A stretch of 64,000 nucleotides of DNA from Gemmatimonadales bacterium (GTDB taxonomy: Bacteria; Gemmatimonadota; Gemmatimonadetes; Gemmatimonadales; GWC2-71-9). Positions within the stretch are counted from its first letter, which is position 1, and each line of letters opens with the position of its first letter. Of the stretch, positions 13,796-31,727 are shown in pieces. The translations under genes and the position numbers were made by a program. Below the pieces are notes generated by a model. It ran no database searches and had not been told where the DNA came from. It saw only the letters and a list, made by a program, of their open reading frames with translations. Where the stretch lies: positions 2,517 through 66,516 of the forward strand of contig DASPXJ010000056.1 of NCBI GenBank assembly GCA_035637355.1, written 5' to 3'.

Positions 13796-13866
13796 GCGCC
13801 GCAGCGAGTCGGGTGGGACAGCCGGTGGAGCGCTCGATGCCTGGAGCAGGGCGAGCCAGGTGCCGA

Positions 13867-14724
13867 TCAGCGGATCTCCATTTGCTCGCTGAGGACCTGC
13901 AGATCGAACGCCTCGCGCCGCACGCGCAAGTCGTAGTAGAGCAGCGTGATCGCGCACGGCAGAATCGGCGCCAGGACGATCCCCATCAGCGACGCCACCA
14001 CGACAAAGAGCGGTTGCAACGACGCGTTCCCCGCCGCGCCCAGCGCCCCGCTGATCCCCCCCACCACCATCTGGGGGAGCAACTGCGAGATCAGCCACGC
14101 GACCACCGCCGTTCCGAACACCTTTCCGCGCGCGCCACGCGTCAACTCCCAGGAACGCCCGAACGCATCGAACGAGCTCGTCAGGTCTTCGAGGACGACG
14201 ATGGGTGTGGTAGTGCCGTAGACACAGGCAACCCACACGACGAACCACGCCAACCCGACGAAGCCGACAAATCCGATCAATCCGCCGACCCCCACCACCT
14301 TGCCGACCATGACCAGCAGGACGACGACGAGCGCTCCGGCGCCCGGCACCAGGATCAGCAACAGGTTCTTGCTGAAGGTGACCAGCAGCAGCGGCAGGAT
14401 CTTGGAGACACCGAATCGCAGCGCGCTGCCGAGCTGCGGCTCCTGGCCGAGGTAGGAGTCCGAGATGATCCGAATCGTCCCCGCCTTGAGCAGCAGTCCC
14501 GCCGTCGTCCATACGATGATCAACAACAGGCCGAATAACACGCTGGTGCCGGTGTGCTGCTCGAGGATGTTCAGCATTTCGAACGGGCTGTTGCTGAACC
14601 GCACCTGCATGTAGATGCCGGCGGCCGTCGGGAGCCACACCAGCGCGAGGCTCAGCCGCATGAACAGGCCGAAGTGACGGCGGTAGATGTTGAAGCTGCC
14701 GTCGAGGATTTCGCCGAGCTGCAT
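13867..14724 (-). CDS. polytopic membrane protein (glycerophosphodiester phosphodiesterase membrane-domain-like / DUF975-like)
   Basis: 285 aa with 6-7 hydrophobic helices. First gene of the long minus-strand operon. Confidence 0.55.
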   Translation of the reverse strand: MQLGEILDGSFNIYRRHFGLFMRLSLALVWLPTAAGIYMQVRFSNSPFEMLNILEQHTGTSVLFGLLLIIVWTTAGLLLKAGTIRIISDSYLGQEPQLGSALRFGVSKILPLLLVTFSKNLLLILVPGAGALVVVLLVMVGKVVGVGGLIGFVGFVGLAWFVVWVACVYGTTTPIVVLEDLTSSFDAFGRSWELTRGARGKVFGTAVVAWLISQLLPQMVVGGISGALGAAGNASLQPLFVVVASLMGIVLAPILPCAITLLYYDLRVRREAFDLQVLSEQMEIR

Positions 14725-14783
14725 GGGCCTGAGATTCGAGCTAATGGGTCGCTCCGCGAGGGGACAGGCGGTAAAATGAGGAC

Positions 14784-16592
14784 ATGGCGGCCTCCGCGCG
14801 AGACCTCGATCTGCGCCAACATCACGGCGTCGAGACGCCGGAGCACGTCGAGGTCCGCTTCGAGCTGGCTGGTGTCGGCTCCCGCATGGCGGCCGGACTG
14901 CTGGACTTGCTGTTCCTGTTCCTCGGCCTGATGCTCCTCTGGATTGGCGGGGGCGTGATCGTCGGCGGCGTGTTGTCGAGGCAGGGGATGCTGCAGGGAT
15001 GGTTCGCCGCCGTGATGGTGCTGCTCATGTTTTCCGGGGTGTGGGGCTATTTCACGCTGTTCGAGGCGTTGAACGGCGGCCGGACGCCCGGGAAGCAGCT
15101 ACTCGGGATCCGCGTGGTCATGGACACGGGGCGGTCGATCACGCCCCCCGCGGCCCTGATTCGCAATTTGGTCCGGCTGCTCGACTGCTACTTCCCGATC
15201 CCGTTCGCGCCGGCGCTGGTCACGATGTTTCTCCACCCGAGCAACAAGCGTCCGGGGGATCTGGCGGCCGGCACGATCGTCGTGCGCGATCGCCCCACCG
15301 ACTGGGTACTTGGGGCCGCGACCGAGAGCGAATCGCCGGCGGACCCCATCGAGACCGGCCCGCCTGAGCTGTCCGAAGACGAATTCCGGCTGCTGGATCG
15401 CTTTCTCGCACGTTTGAGCGAGCTCAATCCCGACGTCCAGATCCGGATGACGGCGGACCTGGTGCGCCGCTTCGAGACGCGCATTCCGCGCCGCAGCGCC
15501 GACCCGCAAGGGTATCTCGTCACCGTCTTTGCCGAAGAGCAGCGCAAGCGTCGCAGCCGCTTCGCGCCGCGCGCGCAGGCGGGCGCGGCCGGTCGGATCA
15601 CCGTGCCGGCCGAGCGCTTCGTCGAGAAGAAGCGGCAGGGATGGGAGTCGTTCCGCGTCACCGCGGTGCGCATGGAGCGGTCCGGCGTCGGCGCACTGGA
15701 GCCGGGCGAGATTCCGGCGTTCGCCGCGCAGTACCGCGAGGTCGCCGCCGATCTCGCCCGCGCCCGCACGTATCAGGTCGACCCGCGGGTGATCACCTAC
15801 CTGGAGCGGGTGGTCACGGCAGGCCACAACGCGCTCTATCGGGCTCGCGGCAAGCAGCGCACGCCCCTGCCCCACTACATCCTGCGCGACTTCCCGGCCG
15901 CCGTCGTGCAATCCTGGCAGTACGTCCTGCTCGCTTTCCTTTTATTCGCCATTCCCGCGGCGGTCGGCTACCGGATGATCCGTGACCGGCCCGCGCTGGC
16001 GGAGGAGATCGTTTCGCCGGTCATGGTCGCGCGCGCCGAGGAAGCGGCCGAGAATCAGGTGGAAGGGCGCGGCTATGCGCAGGCCAGCAAGGAGGATCGC
16101 CCCGTGTGGGCCGCTTTGATCATGTCGAACAACATCAACGTCTCGTTCGGCACGTTTGTCGGCGGCCTGACGGGCGGCCTGCTGACCGCCTGGCTGCTGT
16201 TCGTCAACGGGATGATGCTCGGGCTCGTGATCGGCCTGTTTCAGAACTACCACGCGCTCAACTATCTCATGACGTTCGTGGCGGGACACGGCGTGCTGGA
16301 GCTGACGGCGATCTTCATCTCGGCGGGGGCGGGGTTTCGGCTGGCCAAGGCGCTGATCGCGCCGGGGGACCGCACTCGCAGGGACGCCCTGGTCCTGGAA
16401 GGACGCATCGCGGCGCGCATGATCGGCGCCGTCGTCACGCTGCTCGCGATTGCGGGGACAATCGAAGGCTTACTCTCGGCGTCCGATGCGCCTGCGATCT
16501 GGAAATACGGTGTCAGCGCATCAACAACGCTCTTGTTGGCGTTGTATTTCGTAAATGGCCGAAGGTATTTAGTTGTTCAGCGCCCCCTGTAG
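14784..16592 (+). CDS. RDD domain - linker - SpoIIM (stage II sporulation protein M-like) fusion membrane protein
   Basis: N-terminal RDD signature (GRTPGKQLLGIRVV...IRNLVRLLD). C-terminal SpoIIM-like helices (FVNGMMLGLVIG..., FVAGHGVLELTAIFISAGAGF). Confidence 0.7.
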   Translation: MAASARDLDLRQHHGVETPEHVEVRFELAGVGSRMAAGLLDLLFLFLGLMLLWIGGGVIVGGVLSRQGMLQGWFAAVMVLLMFSGVWGYFTLFEALNGGRTPGKQLLGIRVVMDTGRSITPPAALIRNLVRLLDCYFPIPFAPALVTMFLHPSNKRPGDLAAGTIVVRDRPTDWVLGAATESESPADPIETGPPELSEDEFRLLDRFLARLSELNPDVQIRMTADLVRRFETRIPRRSADPQGYLVTVFAEEQRKRRSRFAPRAQAGAAGRITVPAERFVEKKRQGWESFRVTAVRMERSGVGALEPGEIPAFAAQYREVAADLARARTYQVDPRVITYLERVVTAGHNALYRARGKQRTPLPHYILRDFPAAVVQSWQYVLLAFLLFAIPAAVGYRMIRDRPALAEEIVSPVMVARAEEAAENQVEGRGYAQASKEDRPVWAALIMSNNINVSFGTFVGGLTGGLLTAWLLFVNGMMLGLVIGLFQNYHALNYLMTFVAGHGVLELTAIFISAGAGFRLAKALIAPGDRTRRDALVLEGRIAARMIGAVVTLLAIAGTIEGLLSASDAPAIWKYGVSASTTLLLALYFVNGRRYLVVQRPL

Positions 16593-18920
16593 AATCCAGT
16601 TGCGAATGGTGTTGATCGTCGTGTTACTCAAGCAGTTTGATGTGCAGCCGAACGGCATACGCACGCCTGATCCGCCCACCGTCGTTTGCGTCCCCTGAAT
16701 CTTGTGCACCAGATAGGAGGAATCGGGGAGGAATGGCCGGACGCGTTTTAACGCCGGGACTTCGCCGGCCGCCACGTTGACGATCAAACCGTAGGAGACA
16801 CCGGAGGCGAGGCTCATCCCTTCCGGCGCACCGGCCCCCGAGTGGCAGCCGATGCAGTTCGCAGTGAAAACCGATTGCACGCTCGCCGCGAAGCTGACCC
16901 CGGTGGCCGCTACCGCCACAATCCGCTCACCGAACACCGTCCCGATGGTCGCGCGCACCGTCTCGGAGCCGGTGGTGGCATTCGTCGTCACCGTCACCGT
17001 CTCCGACGTGCTCGCCGACAGGCTCGCATGCGTGCCAGGCATGACGGACCACGTAACGTCGCTGCGGGTGCGCGGATCGATGTGGTTCGTCGAGTCGCGT
17101 ACCACGGCGATGAAGGGCGCACTCTGGCTGATCGTCATTTCTACGTCGGGCGTCCCGAAATTGACCGGCAGGAGCGATACCGACGCGGCGACCTGATCGA
17201 CGGTAACCGAGTTGACGCCGACGACGCTCGTTGCCGCGGTGGCATTGATCGTGGTGCTGCCGTTTCCCGCCGCGGTGATCGTCGTCGTTTTTGCGGTCGC
17301 CGGGCTGAACGACACGACATTGGCCGTCCCGGCGCTCCAGTTACACGGATGATTCGGGATGGTATCGCTCGCCGAATCCCTCACCACGCAGGACGCCTGC
17401 ACCGAACGGCCGATCGCCGTCAACGTGCCGAACGAGTTCGGATTGAGATCGGCGAACCGGGGGACCTGCCGGACAACGATGGATCGGGAGGAGTCCGTGA
17501 TCCCTCCTGTGGCGGCGCGCACCTTCACCGTTATCCCCGTGGCGCTCGAGCGTTGCAGCGCGGTCGCCAGCCCGGCGGCGTCGATGTCGAGCACGGCGTT
17601 GTTCGTCGACCAGGTGATCGCTTGACCCGGGATTGCTGCACCCCCCGAATCGCGCGGCTCGGCCGCGAAGGTTTGCGTATCGCCGACGAAGTTCAATGGC
17701 GCCGGGCTCGCCGGCGTCACGTTGATTGACGCCAGCACCTGCCGCACGACGAGCGGAACCTTGTCGTGGATGCCGCGGGCCACGACGTCGACGCTATCGA
17801 TTCCCGTATTGCCATTTCCCGTTACCAGGCCGGTCGAGGAGCCAATCGTCGCTATGGCGCCGGGGCTGAAGAGCGACCAGGCGAAATCCTTTGGATTGGG
17901 CACGATGGTGTTGCCCGCATCGCGCACGATGAGGCCGAGCTGCAGCGAGCCATTGAGCTGGTTGATGCGGGCCGTATCGAGCGGTGTGGGAGTGGGGCCA
18001 GTCGTGGCGATTTGAACGGAGGTATAGATGAGATTCACGGACACATCCACCGAATCCCCAAACACGCCCGACGTTGCGACCACGCGAGTCTGCCCTTCGT
18101 CGACCGCCCTGATGAGCCTGGCCCCACTGACCCCGGTGGCAGTGACCGTCGCGACGGCCGTGTTGCGCGAGGCCCAGACGATCATCGAGTCATCGAGCTG
18201 ATTCCCGCGTGCATCGAGCACGACAGCGGAGATCGTGTCGCTGCCGTTGATGCGGTCGAAATTGAAGACGATCGGCGTGAGACCCAACGTCGTCGCGACC
18301 TGGTGCACGGTCGCCGTGACGGAATCGGAGACGCCGTCGCCGCTCGCCACGATGCGGGTCGAGCCGTTCTGGAGCGCGGAGATATCGGCCAGCTGCGAGT
18401 TCCCCACCCGCCCCTGCGCCGACACGATCGCCGGCGCGCGGGACACCCACGCGAACGCCACGCCCGCCACGGCCGCGTCGAGCGCATCGCGGGCCTCGGC
18501 GGTCAGTGTGGCACCATCGCCCAGCGAGGAGAATGTCCGGTTGCCCGGCGCGATCACAATTGAGCCGATGCGCGTCCGGATCGCATGCGCCGGGCTCGAC
18601 ACCGAGGTTGGGGTGCCGTTGAGGACCGCGAGCGCGGTGATGTTGGTGCTGCCGAGTCGCACGCCGGTGACGAGCCCCGAGCCCGAGACTCGGGCGCGCG
18701 TGGTATCGGATGAAGTCCACTCGAAGGTGACGCCGCTGACTGCCGCGTTCCCACTCAGCGCGACGGCGGTCAGTTGCCGAGTGCCCGCAAGCACGACGGT
18801 CGAATCGCCGTTGATGACCACCGATGTGATGGTCGGAGGACCACCGTCGCCGCCACCACCGCCGCAACCAACCACGACGCCGGCCAACCCGCCCACCAGG
18901 ATCAAACGGAAACGACGCAT
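16569..18920 (-). CDS. secreted protein with multiple Big_2 (Ig-like) repeats and a C-terminal CxxCH cytochrome module (PSCyt1-like)
   Basis: Signal/lipobox-like N-terminus (GVVVGCGGG). Repeated ...LTA.A.D..G..v......W.S....vA.Vs..G.v... units. C-terminal FTANCIGCHSG...SYLVHKIQG...MPFGC...IRNWILQGA. Confidence 0.7.
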   Translation of the reverse strand: MRRFRLILVGGLAGVVVGCGGGGGDGGPPTITSVVINGDSTVVLAGTRQLTAVALSGNAAVSGVTFEWTSSDTTRARVSGSGLVTGVRLGSTNITALAVLNGTPTSVSSPAHAIRTRIGSIVIAPGNRTFSSLGDGATLTAEARDALDAAVAGVAFAWVSRAPAIVSAQGRVGNSQLADISALQNGSTRIVASGDGVSDSVTATVHQVATTLGLTPIVFNFDRINGSDTISAVVLDARGNQLDDSMIVWASRNTAVATVTATGVSGARLIRAVDEGQTRVVATSGVFGDSVDVSVNLIYTSVQIATTGPTPTPLDTARINQLNGSLQLGLIVRDAGNTIVPNPKDFAWSLFSPGAIATIGSSTGLVTGNGNTGIDSVDVVARGIHDKVPLVVRQVLASINVTPASPAPLNFVGDTQTFAAEPRDSGGAAIPGQAITWSTNNAVLDIDAAGLATALQRSSATGITVKVRAATGGITDSSRSIVVRQVPRFADLNPNSFGTLTAIGRSVQASCVVRDSASDTIPNHPCNWSAGTANVVSFSPATAKTTTITAAGNGSTTINATAATSVVGVNSVTVDQVAASVSLLPVNFGTPDVEMTISQSAPFIAVVRDSTNHIDPRTRSDVTWSVMPGTHASLSASTSETVTVTTNATTGSETVRATIGTVFGERIVAVAATGVSFAASVQSVFTANCIGCHSGAGAPEGMSLASGVSYGLIVNVAAGEVPALKRVRPFLPDSSYLVHKIQGTQTTVGGSGVRMPFGCTSNCLSNTTINTIRNWILQGALNN

Positions 18921-18989
18921 GACGGCCCCCTAGGGAAGGATTCCCCTAGGATGAACCGCGGCCTGCTGCCTGTCTAGATGCGCGCTTGC

Positions 18990-20567
18990 TTACCGCTTGG
19001 CCGTTGCAGGAAAGTGCTGATCCTGCGCGGCGCGGGTGAGGCGGACCACGGTCCCGTCGTTCCTGCGGAAATAGATCTGCCCGTACACGCTACCACCCAG
19101 CTGGAACACGACGCCGTCGGAGCGCCAGAACGGCTCGTTCGCACTCATGAGCTCGGAGCTCACGCGCTTGGTGATCGGCGCGGCTGCCGTCGCCGGGGCA
19201 ACGACGACCGCTTTTTTGTTGTCGATGAACATGTCGAAGGCGAGCGAGTCGCCCGCGGGGTTCCAGTCCACGAGGTCGGGCTGTCCGCGCGCGGCCGAGC
19301 AATCGCCGGCGGCCACAATGGCATCGACGCCCGTGTCGCGGTTGCGCGTATGCACCTCGCCGCTACATCCCTGGATCGTGTAGGCGAGCGTGTGGCTGCC
19401 GGCGACAGGCTGCCATGCCACGCTGTTCACAGAGTTCGGCGTTCCAGGGATTGCTGTCTGCCCGCCTCCTGTCGCGTCCATGATGAAGATCTGGCCACCG
19501 CGCACGTAAATGATCGAGTCTCCCGCCGGTGACCAGTCGGGCGACTGATGGTCGGTAAACGGAACGGCGGTGAGCGGCGTGAGCGTCCCGCCGGCGTCGC
19601 GCCGGCAGATTTGAGAATAGGACGTGATGTAGTAGCATGCGACCAGCACGCTGCCGTCGGCCGCCGACACGCGCGGCCGCCACTTGGTGCCGTTGAACCA
19701 GTTCGACGTGCTATCGCCGGTAATGACGAACGCGGTGTCGCCGGCGGCGCGAATCGTCAAGCCGCTGACTCCTGGCGTCGCCCGTCCCGACCCCTCCGAT
19801 TGGTAATACAGCGAGTCGGGGAGCGTAGTCTGCGGTGCGCAGTGCTCCGCGATCGCCGCGCCCGTGCGCGATCCGCTGGTCGGCAGCTCAACGGCGCGTG
19901 AGAGCATGAACAGCGCATCGCGCGACGTCACGCGTCCGTCCGAGTCCACATCGCCGCGGGTCAGAGTAAAGCCGCCCGTGGGAAGTCCCACCGCGCCCGC
20001 CAACGCGATGAGGGCGTCGCGGCTGCCGACGCTCGCGTCACCGTCGATATCGCCCCAGACCGTGGTCCCGAGGCAGATCTCGGCCAGCGCCGCCTCCTCA
20101 TCGTAGGGCCGGGGCGTGGCGTCGCTTTGGCTGACGCTGATCGGATCGGCGTACAGCACGGCTCCGCTTGTGGAACCGGCTTCGAGCCGTAGCCGAAACC
20201 GCACTGCGTCTCCCCCATACGTGCCGGACGGCGCGCACCCCGCCGCCGAGAACTCGACGTAGTTCGCTCCCTGGATCGGCGGGTTCAGCGGGAATGTCGC
20301 CGAATCAGGGCAGGCGGAGGCGGCGCTGCCCGAGACGTAGCTGACGCGTGTCGGATCGAAGTGCACGCGAACCGTAAACGCCCCCAGGCCGGCACTCGCC
20401 TGATCGAACGCCATCAGCGTGACGTTGGTCTCACCGCCGGCGAGCGCCGCGTACACGCTGTCGCCCGAATCGTAGAAGAACTGGAAGCGAATTGCGGAGC
20501 CGGTCTGCGCCGCGACCGGTGCGACGACGCCGAGGCCCATGACGAGTGCGGTGAGCGTGCGCTTCAT
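18990..20567 (-). CDS. cohesin-like + dockerin-like + TolB/PD40-type beta-propeller protein
   Basis: Signal peptide ends AAQ. GAFTVRVHFDPTRVSYVSG is cohesin-like. GDIDGDASVGSRDALIAL...GDVDSDGRVTSRDALFML is a duplicated dockerin repeat. SPDWSPAGDSIIYV and VDWNPAGDSLAF are PD40-like. Confidence 0.7.
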   Translation of the reverse strand: MKRTLTALVMGLGVVAPVAAQTGSAIRFQFFYDSGDSVYAALAGGETNVTLMAFDQASAGLGAFTVRVHFDPTRVSYVSGSAASACPDSATFPLNPPIQGANYVEFSAAGCAPSGTYGGDAVRFRLRLEAGSTSGAVLYADPISVSQSDATPRPYDEEAALAEICLGTTVWGDIDGDASVGSRDALIALAGAVGLPTGGFTLTRGDVDSDGRVTSRDALFMLSRAVELPTSGSRTGAAIAEHCAPQTTLPDSLYYQSEGSGRATPGVSGLTIRAAGDTAFVITGDSTSNWFNGTKWRPRVSAADGSVLVACYYITSYSQICRRDAGGTLTPLTAVPFTDHQSPDWSPAGDSIIYVRGGQIFIMDATGGGQTAIPGTPNSVNSVAWQPVAGSHTLAYTIQGCSGEVHTRNRDTGVDAIVAAGDCSAARGQPDLVDWNPAGDSLAFDMFIDNKKAVVVAPATAAAPITKRVSSELMSANEPFWRSDGVVFQLGGSVYGQIYFRRNDGTVVRLTRAAQDQHFPATAKR

Positions 20568-23248: not shown

Positions 23249-26200
23249 GGCCGGCCTCGGGAAAGGCGTGGCGGAGCGGGGACAGGTGCCGGTCCGTACG
23301 GAGCGGGGAGGACCGGATCGAAGATTACGTTGTCGCTCACCGCGTCGCCGAGCGAAGCAACATTGCACGCGGTGCACCCCGATGGCCCGAGCGGATCTTT
23401 CCACCAATTGTTGGCGGCATCGAGCGCGGGCACAGTCCCGTTCGTCACCGCGAAGAAGGTATTCAACACGAAGTTGTTGTTGACGATCATCGAGCCTTCG
23501 GCGCCGCTGAACACGCTGATGCCGGTGCCGTTCGCCTGGAACACGCTTTGCCGCACGGTGGCGGGAGACGACAGCTGCAGGCCGCGGCCGCTGTGCCCCA
23601 GCACGACCATGCTGTCAAACAGAATCGTTCCCGTCGACCCGAACACATTGGCGCCGGCGATCGCGTTTTGCTCGAGCCGGCCGCCGTACACGTTGGCCGC
23701 GCTCTGAATCCCGCTCAGGCTGAGCGCGAAGTCGCCGCACTCGCCGCCGCAGCTGTCGCGGAAGCCGCGGATCGTCACGCGCCGGATGTCGACGAGATTC
23801 GACCCGTCGACCCGGACGCCTGCGTCGACGCCAGCGGCGAGGGTGTCATCGCGGATCGCCACGTTGGCGACGTCGCTGACGAGCACGGCCGCGCTGGATT
23901 GCCGGTAGGGCACACTGTCCAGACGCGCGCGAAGCAGGGAGAAGTCGGTGAAGTGCGTCACCGTGATTCCGCCTTGCGTGCTCGCGAACTTCGTCCCATC
24001 CACGCTCACGGATCCGCTCGGCGCATTCAGATCGCCGGTCGCGCGAATCGCGTAGTCCCCCCCCTGGATGAGGCCGCCTTGCAGGGCGAGCGTAGGACCG
24101 GCGCGCACCGTCATGTCGGCATCGATGCCGCCATACGTATTGGAATCCAGCACAAAGCGATCGAGCTGCGCGCTCTGGATCCCCGCGAGCGCCAGACCGG
24201 GCGCCTGCGTCGTCTGGTAGAGAACTTTCGCGGGCGGACCCTCGCTGGAGAACGCCCCGCTTGGTTGGACCTCGCATCCGAACTCGCAGAGTCCCGAGCT
24301 CAGGCCCAGGTTCCGGGCGATGGTCGTGCCGTCTCCCTGCACCACGCGCGTCGAATCGACGAGGACGCCGCCGCCCAGATTGTCGATCACCCCGGTCGAG
24401 TCGAGTCGCACGGAATCGGCGCGCAGGACCGTGAGCGCGAAAATCGATGCGCCAAAGCGCTTGAACGACGGCTGAGCCGACCCGGTGACGCTCAGCTTGA
24501 CGATCGAGACGGTTGCGACTGAATCCGTCAGGACCGCCTGGTCCAGGATATCGCGGAGCGTATCGGCCCGCAGCGAGAGCCGGTTCGTCGCACCGGCGAC
24601 GACCCCCCCGCCGTTGAGGATGTGCTCCACGCTCGTCGAGTCCACCGTGACCCGGTCTATGCCTGTGAAGGTGAACCCGTCTCCGAAAGCGACCGAGTCG
24701 ACCTGCGACCTCGATACTCGCACCAATGATCCTGGTGTCCGGGCCGCGGGATTGCGTTGGCGAATGCGGACGCCATCGCTCGACCGCCGCAACACGACAT
24801 TGGCCATCAGCGCCGTGTCAGCGCTGATCACGATGCCGTCGCGCAGGTCCCTCGCCACGCCGTTGCTGAACGAGACATACCGCGCGCTGTCCACCTTGAT
24901 CGGACCGGCGGCTGCCAGGTTGAATTGGGACAGGTCCACGCGCTCGACGAACGACGCGCCGAGCGAAACCGCCCGCTCGGACGACGCGCCGACCACCGTG
25001 ACTCGGCTCGCCCGCAGCGAATCGCCGACGACCATCGCGACACCGATCGCGACGGGGCCTTCGACGTCCGGGTAAGGGCCGGGGGCTACGGCGCGGAAAT
25101 CCGCACCGTCTACGACCACGGCGGCGGTCGTCTCGGCGAGGAAGCCCGCGAGCGCGAGTCCGCTCCCGCTCACTCCCAGCAGGACGGCGCGGCGCATATT
25201 GCGAACCCGGAACCCCGGCCCGCGCATCGAGCTCGCGACGACCGACTGGACCTCCAGAGAATCGCTGGCCGCCACGATGCCCGCTTCGATGCCGGCGTTC
25301 GATTCGAGCAGCCGGAACCGCCGGATCACGACCAGGCCGGCTGAGCCGACCGCGATCGCCGATCCCGCGGCGTTCGTGATCGTCGGCATTCCGGCGGCGC
25401 TCGAGTCTCCCAACAGCACCACGGGCTTGCTGATGATGGCCGGGCCGTACGGGGGCGAGCTGCCCACGCGCACCGTGTCGCGGGGCGCGGCGGCGTCCAG
25501 CCCTTCCTGGATCGTCGGGAAGGGATACGCAGCCGAGCCGAGGTGCACTGGATTCGTGGCCGCGATGCTTTGCTCGACGTACCAAGTGTGACGCGGCTGG
25601 ACCGTGACATCGAGCGTTTGACTGAGGCCGATCGCCTGGGCCGTGATCGTGGCAGAGCCATTTCCGACGGCGGTCACGCGTCCAGCCGAATCGACCGCAG
25701 CGACGCCTGGCGCGTTGGAGCTCCAGAGGAGGCCGCTCGCCGACGTCGGGTTGCCCCCGGCGTCGCGCGCCTGAGCCGCGACCGGCAAGACGTCCCCGGG
25801 CGCGAGCTGGGCACTCGCCGGCGCGAGCACGAGCGTCGCCGCCGCTGCGCCGGCACAGGACGCGTTGGGCTGGCCCACGCGGGCGAAGCTCGGCAGTCCG
25901 ACCGCCGCCGACAGGATTCCGAGCGCGTCGCGCGTGTCCGCATCGCCGTCGGCGTCGACGTCGCCGTTGACCAGGGTGAACGGCGCAATCGGCAGCCCCA
26001 CCGCCGCCGTCACCACCAGCAGCGCGTCGTTCGAGAGGATGCTGCCGTCGCGATTCACGTCGCCGAACGGGCCGCTCGACGCGCAGATCGCGCCCGCGGT
26101 CGGCGTCGCAGCGATGGACGCGAAGCTCACGGCAGCCGTGAGCACCGGCGAGACGACCGTCACCGGGGAGGAGCCGGTGGCGGTGCGCATCTCGAAGGTG

Positions 26201-26541
26201 AGCTCGGCGATCGAGAAGAGTCCGGTGGCGCCCGACGGATTCGCCGCGGCGAGAATGAGCGAGCCGGACGCGGCGCCGACCGCGTTGACGGCCGGACTGC
26301 CGAACGCGCCCGGCGCGGCACTGATGTACCGCACCACGTTCGTGTCCCACGTGACCTCGAGCTGATACGACCCGACGGTCGCGCCGCCGGCGCTAATCAC
26401 GAGAGGCACTGTCGCGCGCCGGCCGCTGTCGATCGCGATGCCCGCCGGATACATCCCGACGAGCGCCTGCGCCTGGAGCGCTGCGGGAGCAGCCACCAGG
26501 GCCAGGAGCGACAGAAGGCCAGAGACTCGGCGCACGGTCAT
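23245..26541 (-). CDS. cohesin-like + dockerin-like + Big_2 + right-handed beta-helix (PbH1) protein
   Basis: 1098 aa with signal peptide ...ALQAQ. GSYQLEVTWDTNVVRYIS is cohesin-like. GDVNRDGSILSNDALLVV...GDVDADGDADTRDALGIL is dockerin-like. A Big_2 unit is followed by about 700 aa of beta-helix-like repeats. Confidence 0.7.
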   Translation of the reverse strand: MTVRRVSGLLSLLALVAAPAALQAQALVGMYPAGIAIDSGRRATVPLVISAGGATVGSYQLEVTWDTNVVRYISAAPGAFGSPAVNAVGAASGSLILAAANPSGATGLFSIAELTFEMRTATGSSPVTVVSPVLTAAVSFASIAATPTAGAICASSGPFGDVNRDGSILSNDALLVVTAAVGLPIAPFTLVNGDVDADGDADTRDALGILSAAVGLPSFARVGQPNASCAGAAAATLVLAPASAQLAPGDVLPVAAQARDAGGNPTSASGLLWSSNAPGVAAVDSAGRVTAVGNGSATITAQAIGLSQTLDVTVQPRHTWYVEQSIAATNPVHLGSAAYPFPTIQEGLDAAAPRDTVRVGSSPPYGPAIISKPVVLLGDSSAAGMPTITNAAGSAIAVGSAGLVVIRRFRLLESNAGIEAGIVAASDSLEVQSVVASSMRGPGFRVRNMRRAVLLGVSGSGLALAGFLAETTAAVVVDGADFRAVAPGPYPDVEGPVAIGVAMVVGDSLRASRVTVVGASSERAVSLGASFVERVDLSQFNLAAAGPIKVDSARYVSFSNGVARDLRDGIVISADTALMANVVLRRSSDGVRIRQRNPAARTPGSLVRVSRSQVDSVAFGDGFTFTGIDRVTVDSTSVEHILNGGGVVAGATNRLSLRADTLRDILDQAVLTDSVATVSIVKLSVTGSAQPSFKRFGASIFALTVLRADSVRLDSTGVIDNLGGGVLVDSTRVVQGDGTTIARNLGLSSGLCEFGCEVQPSGAFSSEGPPAKVLYQTTQAPGLALAGIQSAQLDRFVLDSNTYGGIDADMTVRAGPTLALQGGLIQGGDYAIRATGDLNAPSGSVSVDGTKFASTQGGITVTHFTDFSLLRARLDSVPYRQSSAAVLVSDVANVAIRDDTLAAGVDAGVRVDGSNLVDIRRVTIRGFRDSCGGECGDFALSLSGIQSAANVYGGRLEQNAIAGANVFGSTGTILFDSMVVLGHSGRGLQLSSPATVRQSVFQANGTGISVFSGAEGSMIVNNNFVLNTFFAVTNGTVPALDAANNWWKDPLGPSGCTACNVASLGDAVSDNVIFDPVLPAPYGPAPVPAPPRLSRGRP

Positions 26542-26545
26542 TCCG

Positions 26546-27064
26546 TCAGGGCTTTACTTGGTCGGCAGCCAACACCGTGCGCTGCACCTGCAGGCGCGGC
26601 GACAGATTCGCGAGCGAGCGCGCCGCCGACAGCTCTTCCATCTGGAGCGACAGGTCGCGCGACCAGCTCGCCGCCTTCACGGTGAACGTGGCGCTGTAGA
26701 GCGTCAGATCGGCAAACCCGGTCGCGTTGGCGCCGGCGAAGCGAATCTCGCCCGCCCCCGCCCCGTTCGGGTTCGCGACCCGCAGCCCGTCGTTGATCGT
26801 GACCTCGGCCTTGTACTGCAGCGCCGCCGGGTCGAAGTGCAGCCGGCCCGTGTAGCTGCCGACTTTCAGATTCGCGTCGGCGGAGCGCACGATGACGCTC
26901 ACCTTCACGCTTTGACCGGCCAGCGCGTGGAGATTGTCGACGATGACGTAGGCATTGACGCCCTGCTCCGGCGGTGGCGGCAGGGGATCGGGCCGGGTCG
27001 GCTCGTCGGCGCATGCGGCGCCGACAAGCACGACGGCCATGGCGATGGTACGAAGTGGCAACAT
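26546..27064 (-). CDS. small cohesin-like lipoprotein (possible anchor/scaffold)
   Basis: 172 aa. N-terminal VVLVGAAC lipobox-like sequence. GSYTGRLHFDPAALQYKAEV is a cohesin-like core. No other domain. Confidence 0.6.
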   Translation of the reverse strand: MLPLRTIAMAVVLVGAACADEPTRPDPLPPPPEQGVNAYVIVDNLHALAGQSVKVSVIVRSADANLKVGSYTGRLHFDPAALQYKAEVTINDGLRVANPNGAGAGEIRFAGANATGFADLTLYSATFTVKAASWSRDLSLQMEELSAARSLANLSPRLQVQRTVLAADQVKP

Positions 27065-27093
27065 GATCCTAGTCCTCCCTCGGCAGTGCCGAG

Positions 27094-28491
27094 CTAGGGG
27101 GTGATTCTCGCGGCACCCGATACGACGACGTACCGGCCGCTCGTGAAATAGTTGAAGAAGGTGGGCGACACGCCCGACACTTCGCTGATTTGCAGCGCAT
27201 GACCGTCAGCGCCCGTCGCCAGCGCGGTGAACCACAGCCGCGTCAGCACGAGCGGTCCCGATTTCGAGTTCGCGTCCACGGCCGCGAACCGCAGCACGCC
27301 GATGCTGGAGCTGTCGTTGACCGTCGGCGCCGCGTACGTCCCCGCCGACGTGCTGTCGAAGCGCAGCACCGCCGCATCCCAGCTGTAGCGCGCGTTGTAG
27401 CTGCCGAGCGAGTCCGCCACCGCCAGCTGATCGATGCGCACATCGACCGTGACCGTCTGCCCAACGCGCCGCGTGCCGAAGGCGCGGCCGTTCGTCACCG
27501 CGGCGATGAGCATGTCGCCGGGCGCGCTCGCGGGGTTACCCACCGCGACGACCACCGAGTCGGCACCGGTGCCGGCCTGCGCGACGATCACCGCGCTTCC
27601 CTTGGTGAGCCCGGTGACGAGACCGCTGCCCGACACCGACGCGATCGACGGCGAGCGGCTGATCCACGTGGCGAGAGCAGGATTGAGCAACGCGCCGCCC
27701 GCATCCTTGACCGTATCCGCCAACTGGATCGTCTGGTTGGGCGCCGTCGTCCGCAGCGCGGCGTAGCCGGGTGTGACGACGACGAGCGCGGGCACGCCCA
27801 CCTGCGGCAGGACCGTCACGGGCAGCGTGTCCGCGTCGCCGTAGATCTGCGCGACGACCCGAGCCACCCCACCCGCCGTTCCCGTGCGCGCGACAATGAA
27901 CCGGCTGCTGCGGACGCGCACCAGCGTCGTGTCGAGATTGACCAGGGCGACCGGCACACCCAGTACAGGCACGCCGCTCGAGTCTACGTTGATCGTCATC
28001 AGGAGCGAGTCGCCTTGCGGCAGCGACGCGCTGATCGGGCCGGCGGTGACCAGGCAGCCGGACGTCGCCTGGCAGGGCCCGACGTAGCTGACGAGGATCT
28101 CGACCGGTGGCGGTGTCTCCGCATTCGCGGCCACCTGCACGGTGTCGATCCCCTGGTAGAGCACGGTGGCGTCGCTGGAGCGCACGCCCTCGAGCAGGAT
28201 TTCGAATTGCTCCGGATCGGAGAGCAGCGGAATGGTGAGCGGCAGGTCGACGCTGCCGCTCGAGTCGACCGCGACGGTGGTGTCGATGACGATGGCGCTC
28301 GATGGGACCCGCGTGATGCGGATGTGGAGCGCGTCGAGATCGCCCGTGAGGACGCCGGGCATCGTCTGCGAGAAGACGGGAACGACCGCGAGACTGACGC
28401 GTTGTCCCGGCGCGAACCCTTCCGCGCACGCGAAGGCCCCTGCCAAGCCCAGCACCCACGGCAGGCGGCCGAGACGCACTACCTGGCCCAC
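27094..28491 (-). CDS. secreted Big_2 + C-terminal cohesin-like protein
   Basis: 465 aa. Big_2-like unit (IQLADTVKDAGG...VSGSGLVTGLTKGSAVIVA). C-terminal GSYNARYSWDAAVLRFDS. Confidence 0.6.
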   Translation of the reverse strand: MGQVVRLGRLPWVLGLAGAFACAEGFAPGQRVSLAVVPVFSQTMPGVLTGDLDALHIRITRVPSSAIVIDTTVAVDSSGSVDLPLTIPLLSDPEQFEILLEGVRSSDATVLYQGIDTVQVAANAETPPPVEILVSYVGPCQATSGCLVTAGPISASLPQGDSLLMTINVDSSGVPVLGVPVALVNLDTTLVRVRSSRFIVARTGTAGGVARVVAQIYGDADTLPVTVLPQVGVPALVVVTPGYAALRTTAPNQTIQLADTVKDAGGALLNPALATWISRSPSIASVSGSGLVTGLTKGSAVIVAQAGTGADSVVVAVGNPASAPGDMLIAAVTNGRAFGTRRVGQTVTVDVRIDQLAVADSLGSYNARYSWDAAVLRFDSTSAGTYAAPTVNDSSSIGVLRFAAVDANSKSGPLVLTRLWFTALATGADGHALQISEVSGVSPTFFNYFTSGRYVVVSGAARITP

Positions 28492-29579
28492 TCTATAAAC
28501 AGGCCGAGTCGCGGCCCTACGATCGAGACACTCTTTCCTTCGTCATGCAGCGTGCCGAATGCGAGCTGCGCCTGCACCACGCCAGCGGCGCGGTCGCTCA
28601 ACCGATATCGCAGGTCGGTTCCCGCGCGGAGCAGATAGCCGAGCAGGGCCATCCGCGCGCCATTGTCCGTCAGCTCATGACGGAACTCGAGTAGCGGCGA
28701 CAGCGTCGTCTTGGGACTGAGGGGCCGATCGAGCTTGGCGCCGAGCGCGAGCACGTTGCCGCGCGGCACTGGGACGGCCCCCGGCGCCGCGCGCAGGCGC
28801 CGCATTTCCCAGCCGTACAGCGAAAGATGCGAGCTGCCCAGTGGCATGCTCACCGCCGCGTAGCCGAGCACGCGATGACCAATCGTGCTTTGGTCACCGC
28901 CGCCGAGGTCGTTCGCGGCCGTGGTGGTGAAGACCAACGCACCGCGGAAGTACTTGCCGCCGCCGAACGGACCCTCGATTCCCAGCCGCGCGCGAATCTC
29001 GCCGCCCGGGCTCATCTCGGAGCCGCCCTGGACGGGCACGTAGCTAGCGGCGTAGCGATAACTGGCACCCGTTCCGATCGCCCACGCGCTGCCCATCTTG
29101 AAAGCCGACGCAAACCCTGCTGAAACGCCGCCGCCTGAGCCGAAGCCCGGAGTCATGAATCCAAGCAGATCGGTCGCGGTTGCGCCGAATAATGGGATCG
29201 TCGTGTCGGGGACTGCCGTTGCGCCGGTGGGAATCGTGCCGACGAGATTGAACACGACCTTGCCGGGAATCACGCCGAACGTGGCGCGAATGTCGGTATC
29301 GACGAGCCCCGAATGCGTGATCGTCCCGCCGCCCGCCTCGGTGACTGACGCGCGCGCAAACGCGGTTCCGACGTCGAGGACGAGCCGGTTCCCGATGCGT
29401 TGCGTGACGCTGATGGGAATCGTGAGCTCGCTGATGCGGCTGAAGGCGAGCCCGGTGCCGAAATTGTACGACTCGAAGTAGACGCCGCTGCGGGCCGCGG
29501 TCGTCGCGGCCTGTGCGGCGAGAATCCCCGGCAGCAGCGCGGCGGCCAGAGCGAGCGCGACGTGACGGGCGCGGGTCAC
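28479..29579 (-). CDS. outer-membrane beta-barrel protein
   Basis: 366 aa, signal peptide ...ILAAQA. Amphipathic strands throughout, Gly/aromatic rich. Confidence 0.55.
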   Translation of the reverse strand: MTRARHVALALAAALLPGILAAQAATTAARSGVYFESYNFGTGLAFSRISELTIPISVTQRIGNRLVLDVGTAFARASVTEAGGGTITHSGLVDTDIRATFGVIPGKVVFNLVGTIPTGATAVPDTTIPLFGATATDLLGFMTPGFGSGGGVSAGFASAFKMGSAWAIGTGASYRYAASYVPVQGGSEMSPGGEIRARLGIEGPFGGGKYFRGALVFTTTAANDLGGGDQSTIGHRVLGYAAVSMPLGSSHLSLYGWEMRRLRAAPGAVPVPRGNVLALGAKLDRPLSPKTTLSPLLEFRHELTDNGARMALLGYLLRAGTDLRYRLSDRAAGVVQAQLAFGTLHDEGKSVSIVGPRLGLFIEWAR

Positions 29580-30895
29580 GGTTTGTGGAAAATGACGCGG
29601 AGTACGCCGGAGGCCTGCACCACGCTCGTGATGCCCTGACTCTCCGTCGTAGGATTACTGAGGGTGCTGCCGACACCGTTCTGGCCGGGCTCGGCAATGA
29701 TCGGCGTCAGCTCAGCGGTCGCCTGGCTCAGAGCACCCGTCACGGCAGGCTCGGTAGGCGTCGTCATTTGTGCGACCGCTTCGACGACCGTCACGACATC
29801 GCCCGGCGATGCCTGCACCGCGGGCGCGGCTGCGGCCGCCTGCTGCTGCTGCTGGGCCTGTTGGAACGACGGATCGGCGCGCACCGCCGCGCTGAACGCG
29901 GCCGCGGCGGCACGGTAGTCGCCGCGATCCAGCGCTTCGAGTCCGTTACTGTAGGCCAGGAAGGCCGCCAGATTCTTCGGTCCCTGCCGCAAGATGCGCT
30001 GCCGCTCGGCTTCCGTTAATTGAATGCCCAGCTGCGTGGCGAGGCCGAAGACGAGCTGCTTCTCGAGATCGAGCAGCTGCTTGAACGTGCCGTTGGCCTG
30101 CGCGCCCCCCGGGCGCACGTTGCCGTCGCCGCGCACGACGATCGCCGATAGGCGCACCGGGCCGTTCTGTGTGATCGACGCGACGCCCTGCACCATCCGC
30201 TCCGCGCGCAGCAGGCGCCCGACGCGCGCCGCCGTGCCCGGATCCGCGCGCGCGCTCTGTCCGAGCTTCAGCTCGTCGAGCAGCGCGCCGATCTGTACGC
30301 GCTCCAGCAGCCGCAGGCTACGCACCATCGCCAGATCGGACATCACCAGCTCGGCGAGTCCCCGCGACAACGGCTGGAAGCTCGAATCGCCTGCGATCGT
30401 CATCGGCAATACCGCGATCGTGGAGGGCTCGGGGGCGAGTGTCGTCAGCGTGGACTCGCGCGCCAATGCCAGCTTGGCGGTCTGCGCCGCCTGCGTGCGC
30501 AACGCGAGCTGCGCCAGCGCGCGGACGGCGGCGACGCCGCGCGCCTGTGGATAGCGGGCCGCGAAGTCGCTGTAGGTCGCAAACGCGAGATCGTAGCGCC
30601 CGGCTTTTTCCTGACAGCCGCCGACGACCATCGGTCCCAATGCCTCGCCGGGGGCCAGCATCTGGCCCGCGTTTGCGACGACCACCGCGGTATCACACCG
30701 TCCCGCCGCCACGAGCGCGGCGGCGAGACGGAAGCGGACTTGAGCGTTGGTGGGTTGCTGGGCTGCCTGGGCTTTGAGGGCTGGGATGTTAGCGGGTGTG
30801 ACGGGAACGTTTCGTGGCCCGCCTGCACAGGCCACGAACAAGCCGCTCATCCCTACGAGCAGATACCGCGGACCAGCCAGAATCTGGGACTCCAC
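29576..30895 (-). CDS. CsgG/HfaB-like lipoprotein with TPR-like regions
   Basis: Lipobox-like LFVAC. IAVLPMTIAGDSSFQPLSRGLAELVMSDL...LLERVQIGALLDELKLGQS...RVGRLLRAERMVQG matches the CsgG-family core pattern. First gene of the operon, with a 216-bp upstream gap. Confidence 0.6.
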   Translation of the reverse strand: MESQILAGPRYLLVGMSGLFVACAGGPRNVPVTPANIPALKAQAAQQPTNAQVRFRLAAALVAAGRCDTAVVVANAGQMLAPGEALGPMVVGGCQEKAGRYDLAFATYSDFAARYPQARGVAAVRALAQLALRTQAAQTAKLALARESTLTTLAPEPSTIAVLPMTIAGDSSFQPLSRGLAELVMSDLAMVRSLRLLERVQIGALLDELKLGQSARADPGTAARVGRLLRAERMVQGVASITQNGPVRLSAIVVRGDGNVRPGGAQANGTFKQLLDLEKQLVFGLATQLGIQLTEAERQRILRQGPKNLAAFLAYSNGLEALDRGDYRAAAAAFSAAVRADPSFQQAQQQQQAAAAAPAVQASPGDVVTVVEAVAQMTTPTEPAVTGALSQATAELTPIIAEPGQNGVGSTLSNPTTESQGITSVVQASGVLRVIFHKP

Positions 30896-31111: not shown

Positions 31112-31297
31112 TCACTCTAGGCTGTGCAGCAGCTGACGCATCTTGCGCGCCAGGTCCTCGATCTGTTTGAGCCCGGCCAGCGCCTCCTCGTCGAACTTCT
31201 CAGGCGTGAGGAGCAGGAGCTGAGTCTCGGCGAGTATCGCCGAGAGAGGATTGGACAGGTCGTGCCGCAACTTCGCCATCGCCTGCGGATCGGACAT
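31112..31297 (-). CDS. stand-alone HisKA (DHp) domain mini-protein
   Basis: ORF 31112..31360 trimmed to the ATG at 31297, which is coupled to the upstream stop (TGATG). H-box LRHDLSNPLSAILAETQLLL. No ATPase domain present. Confidence 0.5.
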   Translation of the reverse strand: MSDPQAMAKLRHDLSNPLSAILAETQLLLLTPEKFDEEALAGLKQIEDLARKMRQLLHSLE

Positions 31298-31611
31298 CAG
31301 AGCAATGAGCGGTACAGGTCCCGCAGGTGATGATCCCGCAGGTCCCGCACCGATTGCCACAGATCCTGCTCCGTGCCGGCGCAGAAGATCTCCGCGCTGG
31401 AGCGCTCCAGTTCCGTCCCCTCGGCGCCGAACATGATGCGACCACGCCAGATACCGTCTTCGGTGCGGCGCAGGGAAAGGCGGATGTCTATGGGTTGTCC
31501 GTCGAAGCGGATGGGGGGCAGATCATGGACGACCGTATCGGTCGCAGCAGCTGGTGTGTATCGGGCAGGTTGTGCAGGCATGCCGATCCAGGGGCTGGTT
31601 TGAAACAACAT
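31297..31611 (-). CDS. hypothetical protein (104 aa)
   Basis: ORF translationally coupled to the DHp mini-protein. No recognisable motif. Confidence 0.45.
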   Translation of the reverse strand: MLFQTSPWIGMPAQPARYTPAAATDTVVHDLPPIRFDGQPIDIRLSLRRTEDGIWRGRIMFGAEGTELERSSAEIFCAGTEQDLWQSVRDLRDHHLRDLYRSLL

Positions 31612-31638
31612 TATAAATGGCTAGGAGTTACGCAATAG

Positions 31639-31727
31639 TCGGTTCTCGGTACTCGGTTTTCGGTACTCGGTTTTCGGTACTCGGTGCTCGGTATTCGCGA
31701 ATACCGAGCACCGAATACCGAAAACCG
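31639..31727. repeat. eight tandem heptads (TCGGTNN) running into a 30+30-nt near-perfect palindrome
   Basis: Read directly. The arm 31668..31697 pairs with 31698..31727 with one mismatch, centred on TTCGCGAA. The element starts 3 nt after the stop of the M50 gene (minus strand) and has no U tract. Confidence 0.85.

Follow-up and report, generated by a model that had tools for sequence, protein, structure and literature searches.

The closest described counterparts of the genes considered here are the cellulosome and amylosome of Clostridia and Ruminococcus, in which a cell-anchored cohesin protein is combined with secreted proteins carrying type-I-like dockerins composed of two near-symmetric F-hand repeats. 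The same elements are encoded by five (g3–g7) of eight consecutive genes (g1–g8) located within a 64,000-nucleotide (nt) stretch of contig DASPXJ010000056.1 from a soil Gemmatimonadales bacterium (hereafter the window), and profiles prepared from the relevant modules matched cellulosomal and amylosomal structures first. An initial annotation of this DNA had presented all eight genes as a single 14-kb system headed by a CsgG-like lipoprotein (g1) and an outer-membrane barrel (g2). By way of contrast, comparison with related loci favoured, with moderate confidence, a three-layer reading comprising a conserved g1–g2 pair, a cohesin–dockerin cassette (g3–g7) and an independent g8.

The cassette departs from the cellulosome in a number of respects. 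The host is a diderm, and the anchors (g3 and g4) are lipoproteins rather than SLH or sortase proteins. No multi-cohesin scaffoldin is present, custom hidden Markov models (HMMs) never detecting more than one cohesin per protein, and neither a glycoside hydrolase (GH) nor a carbohydrate-binding module (CBM) family was detected in the eight proteins by Pfam at E ≤ 0.1, in agreement with the earlier claim that no catalytic carbohydrate-active enzyme (CAZyme) domain is visible. In addition, each of the three dockerin-bearing clients (g5, g6 and g7) has its own cohesin immediately before the dockerin, and the whole set is contained within a five-gene cassette.

Non-cellulosomal cohesins and dockerins, including examples of both in one chain, are reportedly known bioinformatically from the work of Peer et al. 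in 2009 (FEMS Microbiol Lett 291:1, cited in PMC8542988), and proteins of Archaeoglobus fulgidus carry both modules; to our knowledge, pairs of this type are listed in catalogues, but partners or functions have hardly ever been attributed to them. Like such proteins, those of the cassette occur outside the plant cell-wall degraders, combine both modules in one chain and deploy non-glycosidase partners (beta-helix, propeller), whereas the cassette appears to be distinguished as a contiguous, block-conserved set of two anchors and three clients that behaves as an accessory indel.

Sets resembling cellulosomes have also been inferred for other diderm phyla (PMC8542988). Literature searches returned nothing tying Gemmatimonadota to CsgG or to a cohesin–dockerin cassette, and no description of a variable slot of stalked cytochrome c/cupredoxin lipoproteins beside a porin-like barrel. 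Four features appear to be new: the encoding of clients and lipoprotein anchors in one compact, contiguous set; the head of cohesin, Cys, dockerin and Cys common to the three clients; the demonstrable accessory-indel status of the cassette; and its position in a slot that is elsewhere occupied by stalked cytochrome c/cupredoxin lipoproteins beside a conserved porin-like pair.

Synteny and the variable slot

Synteny was established from 26 genome loci anchored on g1, all of them Gemmatimonadales/Gemmatimonadota metagenome-assembled genomes, supplemented with metagenome loci. Genes g1 and g2 were adjacent at the site in every related locus examined (30+ loci). Genome loci whose contig spans both flanks, together with L001 and L003, both long metagenome contigs, shared a constant frame consisting of Rho, an M50 peptidase, a 104-amino acid (aa) open reading frame (ORF), a ~61-aa ORF, g1, g2, a variable slot, and RDD/SpoIIM. 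The slot was empty after the barrel in L014, L015, L016, L018, L020 and L021; it contained a g8-type protein only in L027 and L001, a short immunoglobulin (Ig)-like fragment of the g8 type in L013, L019 and L024, an Ig-rich protein ending in an amicyanin-like cupredoxin in L003, L006, L009, L012, L028 and L029, and the cohesin–dockerin cassette in L004, L007/L037, L010, L025 and L036. The first variable gene was co-directional and nearly always overlapped, or lay within a few nt of, the barrel stop, and its co-expression with the barrel is consequently likely; most such genes encode a conserved-Cys lipoprotein-like leader.

In six other assemblies parts of g3–g7 were recovered with gene order and module pattern unchanged, the full set of five genes being seen only in L037. 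As determined with the custom HMMs, the module order (cohesin in g3 and g4, cohesin–dockerin in g5, g6 and g7) was reproduced as far as each contig extends, and the cohesin-only lipoproteins g3 and g4 co-occurred strictly with dockerin-bearing genes wherever sequence reaches them. On short contigs the gene next after g6–g7 was either g8, one for a protein combining Big_1 with a cupredoxin, or RDD itself. A metagenome scan anchored on g7 yielded six short contigs only, and use of the g5 cohesin–dockerin head as the homologue query gave seven matches among 8000 candidates scored. Genes g3–g7 are thus co-conserved with each other, but not with g1/g2 or g8, so that of the co-conservation expected for the original eight-gene system the g3–g7 block is upheld and its linkage to g1/g2 and to g8 is not.

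The closest relative found, L027 (g1 92%, M50 peptidase 97% and RDD protein 98% identical), has g1, g2 and g8 and is without cohesin or dockerin genes. DNA alignment confirmed that the difference is a clean ~9.5-kb indel, homology ending at the barrel stop codon and resuming 11 nt past the g7 stop. Together with the six loci in which the pair occurs without partners, this result speaks against a single system headed by g1 and g2. Among distant members of the g2 family, the three readable contigs each have a 451–460-aa tetratricopeptide repeat (TPR) plus CsgG-like lipoprotein gene directly before the barrel gene. Downstream of the pair, the distant relatives L040 and L041 have unrelated genes (threonine synthase in one, a 155-aa ORF plus a chemoreceptor operon in the other), and in L039 the pair is intact and the contig ends just past the barrel.

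The lipoprotein g8 has a lipobox (…VVGC-GGGGG) and seven Big_2-like Ig repeats before its cytochrome module, in which CxxCH and the downstream RMP were invariant in five homologues. A profile of this module gave best PDB matches that were almost all c-type cytochromes, including FoxE (best E 0.004). Pfam scores for Cytochrom_C (16.4 bits) and CBB3 (16.7 bits) were both below their cutoffs, and PF07635 (PSCyt1) was not reported even at E ≤ 10; the earlier cytochrome label is a weak one. No cohesin or dockerin module was detected in g8 with the custom HMMs; g8 occurs without the cassette in L027, L001, L006 and L008, and the cassette without g8 in L032. The earlier designation of g8 as the redox module of a cohesin–dockerin complex is therefore not supported: g8 is a member of the slot's older variable repertoire and lies outside the cassette.

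The cupredoxin proteins of the slot are about 880–1890 aa in length (884 aa in L009; 411 aa in L033), have a conserved-Cys lipoprotein-like leader in most cases (with L029 an apparent exception), and in every case terminate in an amicyanin-like blue-copper domain with the ligand pattern C-x2-H-x2-M (…YHC-x2-H-x2-M-TGT…). Their N-termini are related to the stalk of g3, with 30–37% identity across the N-terminal ~200 aa of the L006, L009, L012 and L028 proteins. A scenario that we regard as improbable, albeit worth recording, is that in this lineage the conserved g1–g2 pair marks a swappable slot for lipid-anchored Ig-stalk proteins with an exchangeable tip, which may be a cohesin, an amicyanin-like cupredoxin or a monohaem cytochrome c. 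The cohesin version would then derive from a stalked redox lipoprotein turned into a docking post for beta-helix and propeller clients, and would constitute a lipoprotein-anchored, cellulosome-like assembly in a diderm. If so, the stalks with redox tips, situated beside a porin, might make up an electron-transfer device that spans the envelope, for instance to oxidise metals or other extracytoplasmic substrates.

The lipoprotein g1 and the barrel g2

The product of g1 consists of a lipobox (...LFVAC), an N-terminal TPR, a ~140-aa CsgG-N-like alpha/beta domain (aa ~158–296), a further TPR-like region, a Q/A/P-rich linker that is disordered, and a conserved strand motif whose last residue is Pro. 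Homologues numbered 953 (the best 120 of the 953 being 74–100% identical) and are named 'CsgG/HfaB family protein' by NCBI; the architecture, including the short span after the CsgG-like match, was retained in relatives only 34–45% identical. Like CsgG and HfaB, g1 is thus a lipoprotein that passes the Pfam CsgG (PF03783) cutoff over an N-terminal alpha/beta core (32.6–35.5 bits against a gathering threshold, GA, of 20.8), but the match covers only positions 30–99 of the 210 in the model. Residues 41–255 of E. coli CsgG map to model positions 2–209, and its two transmembrane hairpins (TM1 and TM2), of which the 36-strand pore is composed, we take to lie at roughly precursor residues 149–169 and 199–223; the g1 match, ending at position 99, therefore stops before both. 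Only ~55 residues separate the match from the next TPR, too few to accommodate the hairpins.

Profile comparisons were in keeping with this limited correspondence. Aligned with hhalign, a richer g1 profile matched CsgG weakly (E 0.033) with a 17-residue gap in g1 opposite the CsgG segment 'IIGYESNVKSGGVGARYFG', which is presumably the TM1 hairpin; a shallow g1 profile gave an insignificant match to E. coli CsgG, and with E. coli LpoB only the signal peptide was matched. Sequence and profile searches of g1 against the PDB returned TPR proteins only, with no CsgG, LpoB or PelC, and an AlphaFold2 model prepared from a 30-sequence alignment (rows 76–93% identical) had a predicted local distance difference test (pLDDT) score of 36 and was unusable. 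The g1 protein further differs from CsgG and HfaB in its flanking TPRs and in having a separate barrel as its partner, and neither csgE/F/A/B nor hfaA/D was found among the neighbours of the locus. The CsgG family assignment accordingly holds for the pre-TM1 third of the model, whereas the 'CsgG-like channel' originally proposed is, at the sequence level, without support.

The extreme C-terminus of g1 carries a hydrophobic strand motif (G-x-[IL]-[IR]-[IV]-[IF]-[FI]-x-x-P, terminal Pro invariant) that is preceded by ~80 residues of disordered linker and also occurs in the 34–45% identical relatives; it may be a strand-insertion or docking element.

Modelling of g2 with AlphaFold (pLDDT 70.6, predicted template modelling score 0.67) gave a predicted 16-strand barrel, in accord with its earlier label as an outer-membrane beta-barrel. 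Foldseek placed general porins, OmpG and FadL at the top (template modelling scores ~0.45–0.5), phmmer found no matches in the PDB, and no Pfam or NCBIfam family was detected, porin Pfam and DUF560 included. An exhaustive profile search (E ≤ 1e-3) recovered 797 clusters at 50% identity, and among the matches listed none of the homologues (71–100% identical) has a family name. The most conserved stretch of the barrel is a long, nearly invariant loop between strands 5 and 6 (aa 117–151; …TIPTGATAVPDTTIPLFGATATDLLGFxTPGFGSGGGVS…, containing TPGFGSGGG) that was modelled at pLDDT 28–48 and whose position and P-G-F-G-x-G-G motif we take, as a lead only, to recall the PEFGG of porin L3. In predicted strand count, fold matches and, tentatively, loop placement g2 resembles the 16-strand porins OmpF, OmpC and Omp32, from which it differs in lacking a porin Pfam, in its modest structural scores, in the low confidence of the loop, and in its obligatory pairing with a TPR lipoprotein gene. 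On the predicted model g2 looks like a general 16-strand porin rather than a protein conduit.

By analogy only, the g1–g2 pair can be compared with the TPR-plus-barrel export pairs AlgK–AlgE, PelB–PelC and Slam: here too, an outer-membrane barrel and a lipoprotein with TPRs are encoded together, and PelC has a CsgG/TolB-N-like fold. No family-level match to these systems was found, no synthase or glycosyltransferase genes lie near, and the N-terminal TPR and 14-strand DUF560 barrel of Slam correspond here to separate proteins, with no DUF560 in g2. A polysaccharide-export role of the AlgK/AlgE or PelB/PelC type was considered but, in view of the missing synthase genes, is retained as no more than an analogy.

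An alternative to the three-layer reading, which we consider unlikely, is that g1 and g2 constitute a dedicated translocon or docking platform, following a Slam-like logic, for the adjacent stalked lipoprotein (g3, g4, g8 or a cupredoxin giant), the cohesin tips of g3 and g4 then recruiting clients at the surface. The variable gene, where present, is co-directional, begins no more than a few nt from the barrel stop and, in most loci, encodes the conserved-Cys lipoprotein-like leader that such a role would suggest; the pair, however, stands alone in at least 8 loci. Similarly, g1 gave a TPR_Slam match (E 0.063), but at 14.1 bits this is far under the cutoff of 35.2, and neither DUF560 nor any other translocon family was detected in g2, the fold matches of which are diffusion porins with a conserved loop placed like L3. 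Ig-rich proteins of ~1880 aa are estimated to be too long for the periplasm, and the fast evolution of g5 and g6 is of a kind frequent in surface-exposed proteins, whereas periplasmic examples exist for all four of the domain types concerned (cytochrome c, cupredoxin, NosD-like beta-helix and TolB-like propeller). The independent existence of the pair in at least 8 loci and the porin-like fold of g2 are the grounds on which this platform role is judged the less likely.

Cohesin–dockerin modules and the cassette proteins

The five related cohesin-like modules claimed initially were borne out by their mutual BLASTP matches (down to 1e-16), and the motifs quoted for them are present. The Pfam Cohesin model (PF00963; cutoff 24.1 bits) called those of g3 and g4, scored that of g5 below threshold (16.1 bits), and did not call those of g6 and g7, both of which are clear BLASTP paralogues of the other three. 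With a 16-sequence profile prepared from the window and its orthologues, the best PDB matches were the cellulosomal cohesins 2vn5/1g1k (E 0.003–0.007); custom HMM scores were 141 bits for g3 and 160 bits for g4. No cohesin or dockerin module was detected by the custom HMMs elsewhere in the window or in non-cassette loci.

The three dockerin modules are internally duplicated and 48–53% identical to one another (BLASTP 1e-12 to 1e-20). Pfam Dockerin_1 (PF00404; cutoff 22.9 bits) called that of g7, scored that of g5 below threshold (20.3 bits) and did not call that of g6; as single sequences, the g6 module matched the PDB dockerin 4uyp_B (E 0.004) and the g7 module also matched PDB dockerins. With an 11-sequence profile, real dockerins accounted for 12 of the 14 PDB matches at E < 0.02 (best E 1.3e-5), the other two corresponding to a 'serine protease' entry, and neither calmodulin nor thrombospondin appeared. 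The repeats are consequently not generic EF-hand or thrombospondin-type calcium sites, and the cohesin and dockerin assignments, having survived both Pfam and PDB profile tests, stand. All six Ca loops keep D1, D/N3, D/S5 and D12, with a repeat spacing of ~33 residues and a DAL-containing helix after each; the two-loop Ca-ligand layout was conserved across 16 dockerin modules, as part of a duplicated 22-residue F-hand layout with near-symmetric helix residues (S/T/A-R/N-D-A-L).

The co-occurrence of both modules in one chain was confirmed for g5, g6 and g7, the distance from cohesin to dockerin being 2–4 residues (custom module HMMs). In 16/16 modules the dockerin is bracketed by a Cys 3–5 residues upstream and another 10–13 residues downstream, and a disulfide between the two would, judged from these positions, link the dockerin termini. 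A non-covalent intramolecular clasp between the N- and C-termini is a described stabilising feature of dockerins (PMC3821032), to which the conserved Cys pair of the cassette dockerins is equivalent in position.

Big_2 was called by Pfam in g3, g5, g6 and g8. Scores for Beta_helix (PF13229; cutoff 25.9 bits) and NosD (PF05048; cutoff 23.6 bits) were above threshold in both g5 (33.8 and 30.7 bits, with Big_2 at 24.1) and g6 (64.6 and 46.2 bits), in line with the beta-helices originally assigned to these two proteins. The C-terminus of g7 is probably a beta-propeller (TolB/PD40-like), weakly supported by sub-threshold matches only: the NCBIfam TolB propeller (E 4e-5) was far under its cutoff, and the PD40/Tricorn_N signal in an orthologue was 'faint'. 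Of the earlier g7 label the cohesin and dockerin are thus secure and the PD40 propeller is tentative. The beta-helix fold is found in polysaccharide lyases, hydrolases, epimerases, adhesins and NosD; since it serves lyases, hydrolases and epimerases too, the absence of CAZymes means only the absence of a recognised CAZyme family, and a catalytic role for the beta-helix domains of g5 and g6 is conceivable.

Conservation between orthologues varied markedly among the parts of the cassette. The cohesins of the anchors were 71–85% identical (71–81% for g4 as a whole) and every part of g7 74–96%; in g5 and g6 the dockerins were the best-conserved part of both proteins (71–81%), followed by the cohesins (52–55%) and the Big_2 and beta-helix parts (34–50%). 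That the dockerins of g5 and g6 are more conserved than the payloads fits dockerins contacting conserved partners while payloads diversify. The g6 protein ends in an Arg-rich, helix-like tail of ~60 aa (…EQRRAAGRAAIERFASVRAERARWYRSRLDAMRRAAR) without family assignment, which is conserved in orthologues (43–61% identity in L033 and L034).

Domain identities, the conservation of g3–g7 as a block and its independence from g1/g2 and g8 are established by these results; cohesin–dockerin binding, the pairing pattern, the disulfide, the location and the function of the payload are predicted. On this reading g1 and g2 form a conserved, stand-alone outer-membrane pair of a TPR/CsgG-N-like lipoprotein and a porin-like barrel. 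After Sec export, g3, with its cohesin on an Ig stalk, and g4, with its cohesin on a short linker, would become lipid-anchored posts. The clients g5, g6 and g7 would be Sec-exported soluble proteins, freed into the periplasm or beyond and tethered to the anchors by dockerins plugging into cohesins. As each client has its own cohesin, chains or branches would be possible (5 cohesins against 3 dockerins); all dockerins could be satisfied with two cohesins spare, which could extend the assembly or take dockerin proteins encoded elsewhere. The payload would most likely be polysaccharide-binding or -processing (beta-helix), with a propeller partner. In g8, a cytochrome c-like tip is carried by an Ig-stalk lipoprotein that is independent of the cassette and represents one of the several alternatives that can fill the slot. 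Because the client and redox folds have periplasmic precedents, a periplasmic membrane-tethered complex is as plausible as a surface one; exposure is favoured by Ig-stalk proteins of the slot in other loci (~1680–1890 aa) that seem too long for the periplasm and by the fast divergence of g5 and g6.

A number of considerations weigh against this three-layer reading. Cohesin–dockerin pairing is predicted from sequence, the Pfam scores are modest, and two cohesins and one dockerin were called via paralogy or custom profiles only. The very short cohesin–dockerin linker could favour a fixed intramolecular arrangement, and the g5 and g6 beta-helix regions had no sequence relative in the PDB able to suggest an enzyme class. 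No outer-membrane sorting or translocation signal or secretion system is evident in the window, so that a surface location is unsupported, and the tight translational coupling of g2 and g3 (1–13-nt overlap) leaves a possible functional tie to the barrel.

Several of these points bear on the quite doubtful proposition that the modules do not pair at all, the cohesin-like ones being generic beta-sandwiches (carbohydrate-binding or Ig-like), the dockerin-like ones Ca-stabilised inserts, and the cassette a set of paralogous envelope proteins. Pfam scores near or under threshold and a cohesin profile reaching only E ~0.003 against the PDB would be compatible with it, but the best PDB matches of both profiles are to the cognate families. 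Likewise, many non-cellulosomal dockerins have no known partner and those of the cassette are fused almost directly to a cohesin, whereas their duplicated F-hand layout and near-symmetric helix residues are typical of binding-competent dockerins, g3 and g4 strictly co-occur with dockerin-bearing genes wherever sequence reaches them, and no other part of g5 or g6 is as well conserved as the dockerin.

The single-machine model of the initial annotation, in which a CsgG-like channel and barrel export or anchor the cohesin–dockerin and redox proteins at the surface, is very improbable: the genes do lie on one strand with overlapping or nearly overlapping junctions, and g1 does exceed the CsgG cutoff and bear homologues so named, but its alignment (30–99) ends before the hairpins with ~55 residues to follow, the weak hhalign alignment has a 17-residue gap in g1 opposite the presumed TM1 segment, PDB searches gave no CsgG, g2 resembles general porins, L027 is without g3–g7, and the pair is kept without downstream partners in six loci and in other contexts in distant relatives. 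The comparison thereby corrects the inference of a CsgG-type channel exporting the complex and exposes a variable slot beside a conserved porin-like barrel.

With anchors and clients encoded together, the resultant 15-pair interaction matrix is small enough for direct testing, and presence/absence variants among close relatives provide a natural comparison. The cassette would represent a diderm example of lipid-anchored cohesins and Cys-clamped dockerins, and a possible source of orthogonal assembly parts.

Locus layout, flanks and minor features

ORF coordinates and translations confirmed eight co-directional, tightly packed minus-strand ORFs at the positions first annotated (Table 1), with overlaps or gaps of at most 69 nt. 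The overlaps are of 4 nt at g1/g2, g5/g6 and g6/g7 and of 13 nt, or more likely 1 nt, at g2/g3, and the remaining junctions are gaps of 29, 4 and 69 nt. For g3 the GTG at 28479, which overlaps the g2 stop as TAGTG, is the probable start, gene calls for its orthologues beginning at a 1-nt overlap with the barrel stop. Of the two giant proteins claimed (1098 and 894 aa), both were verified: the mechanical ORF of g6 (20564–23407) is 947 aa from a TTG, the ATG at codon 54 gives 894 aa with a normal signal peptide, and this product has an exact match among public gene calls. Lipoboxes are present in g1, g3, g4 and g8, and leaders of the signal-peptidase-I type in g2, g5, g6 and g7.

Table 1. Positions of the features discussed (window coordinates unless a locus is named)
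Feature	Coordinates	Strand	Description
g1	29576-30895	minus	lipoprotein, TPR + CsgG-N-like domain
g1 C-terminal strand motif	29576-29640		terminal Pro invariant
g2	28479-29579	minus	outer-membrane beta-barrel, 16 predicted strands
g3	27094-28491	minus	lipoprotein, Ig-like stalk (incl. Big_2) + C-terminal cohesin
g3 cohesin	27124-27534	minus	C-terminal; Pfam Cohesin 27.5, Big_2 27.3 bits
g4	26546-27064	minus	172-aa lipoprotein, Pro-rich linker + one cohesin
g4 cohesin	26567-26965	minus	Pfam Cohesin 25.8 bits; lipobox …VGAAC
g5	23245-26541	minus	1098 aa, secreted
g5 cohesin	26080-26469	minus	after signal peptide
g5 Cys-bracketed dockerin	25891-26073	minus	after cohesin
g5 beta-helix, best Pfam stretch	23458-23889	minus	long right-handed helix, after Big_2
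g6	20564-23248	minus	894 aa, secreted
g6 cohesin	22784-23188	minus	after signal peptide
g6 Cys-bracketed dockerin	22595-22780	minus	after cohesin
g6 beta-helix, best stretch	21428-21904	minus	after Big_2
g6 Arg-rich tail	20564-20760		C-terminal, helix-like
g7	18990-20567	minus	525 aa, secreted
g7 cohesin	20073-20507	minus	after signal peptide
g7 Cys-bracketed dockerin	19878-20060	minus	after cohesin; Pfam Dockerin_1 24.5 bits
g8	16569-18920	minus	lipoprotein, seven Ig repeats + cytochrome c-like module
g8 monohaem cytochrome c-like module	16572-16937	minus	C-terminal; CIGCH + RMP
Accessory cassette g3-g7	18980-28478	minus	~9.5 kb, indel vs L027
Cupredoxin proteins	L003:12420-18035, L006:2439-8087, L012:12408-18080, L028:10078-15735
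Cupredoxin proteins	L029:13014-18065, L009:12414-15068, L033:1965-3200
MoxR/DUF58/DUF4350/DUF4129 cluster + RDD-SpoIIM fusion	9645-16592		directly past g8
61-aa ORF	31112-31297	minus	HisKA-only peptide
104-aa ORF	31297-31611	minus	without family
14-nt repeats	31636-31727		five units
30-nt palindrome	31668-31697 / 31698-31727		97% complementary

Both flanks consist of unrelated housekeeping genes: Rho, the M50 peptidase and two small ORFs on the g1 side, and on the g8 side the RDD/SpoIIM membrane protein and the DUF4129/DUF4350/MoxR/DUF58 cluster. The latter region, directly past g8, comprises a MoxR AAA+, DUF58-VWA, DUF4350 and DUF4129 cluster and a convergent RDD–SpoIIM fusion membrane protein, and the synteny of the cluster extends to almost every related locus. 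The rest of the 64-kb window was devoid of genes for secretion systems or polysaccharide synthesis, an Rfam scan of the window detected no RNA family, and a promoter and terminator scan gave signal at background level.

Where the M50 peptidase gene ends, a short gap precedes the conserved 104-aa ORF. In this gap a 14-nt unit with a 7-nt sub-period (approximately CGGTnnT) occurs in five copies, a motif with no second site in the window, and the same gap also contains a 30-nt palindrome. The 104-aa ORF itself has no family and was 85–98% identical across all related loci. It is joined by a TGATG overlap to the 61-aa ORF, which encodes a free-standing HisKA-only peptide without an ATPase domain (Pfam HisKA, 30.4 bits with the cutoff at 26.9; H-box RHDLSNPL). 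The two ORFs lie just upstream of g1, ~215 nt away, in syntenic Gemmatimonadales loci, and in two of the three distant relatives a single small ORF takes the place of this pair.

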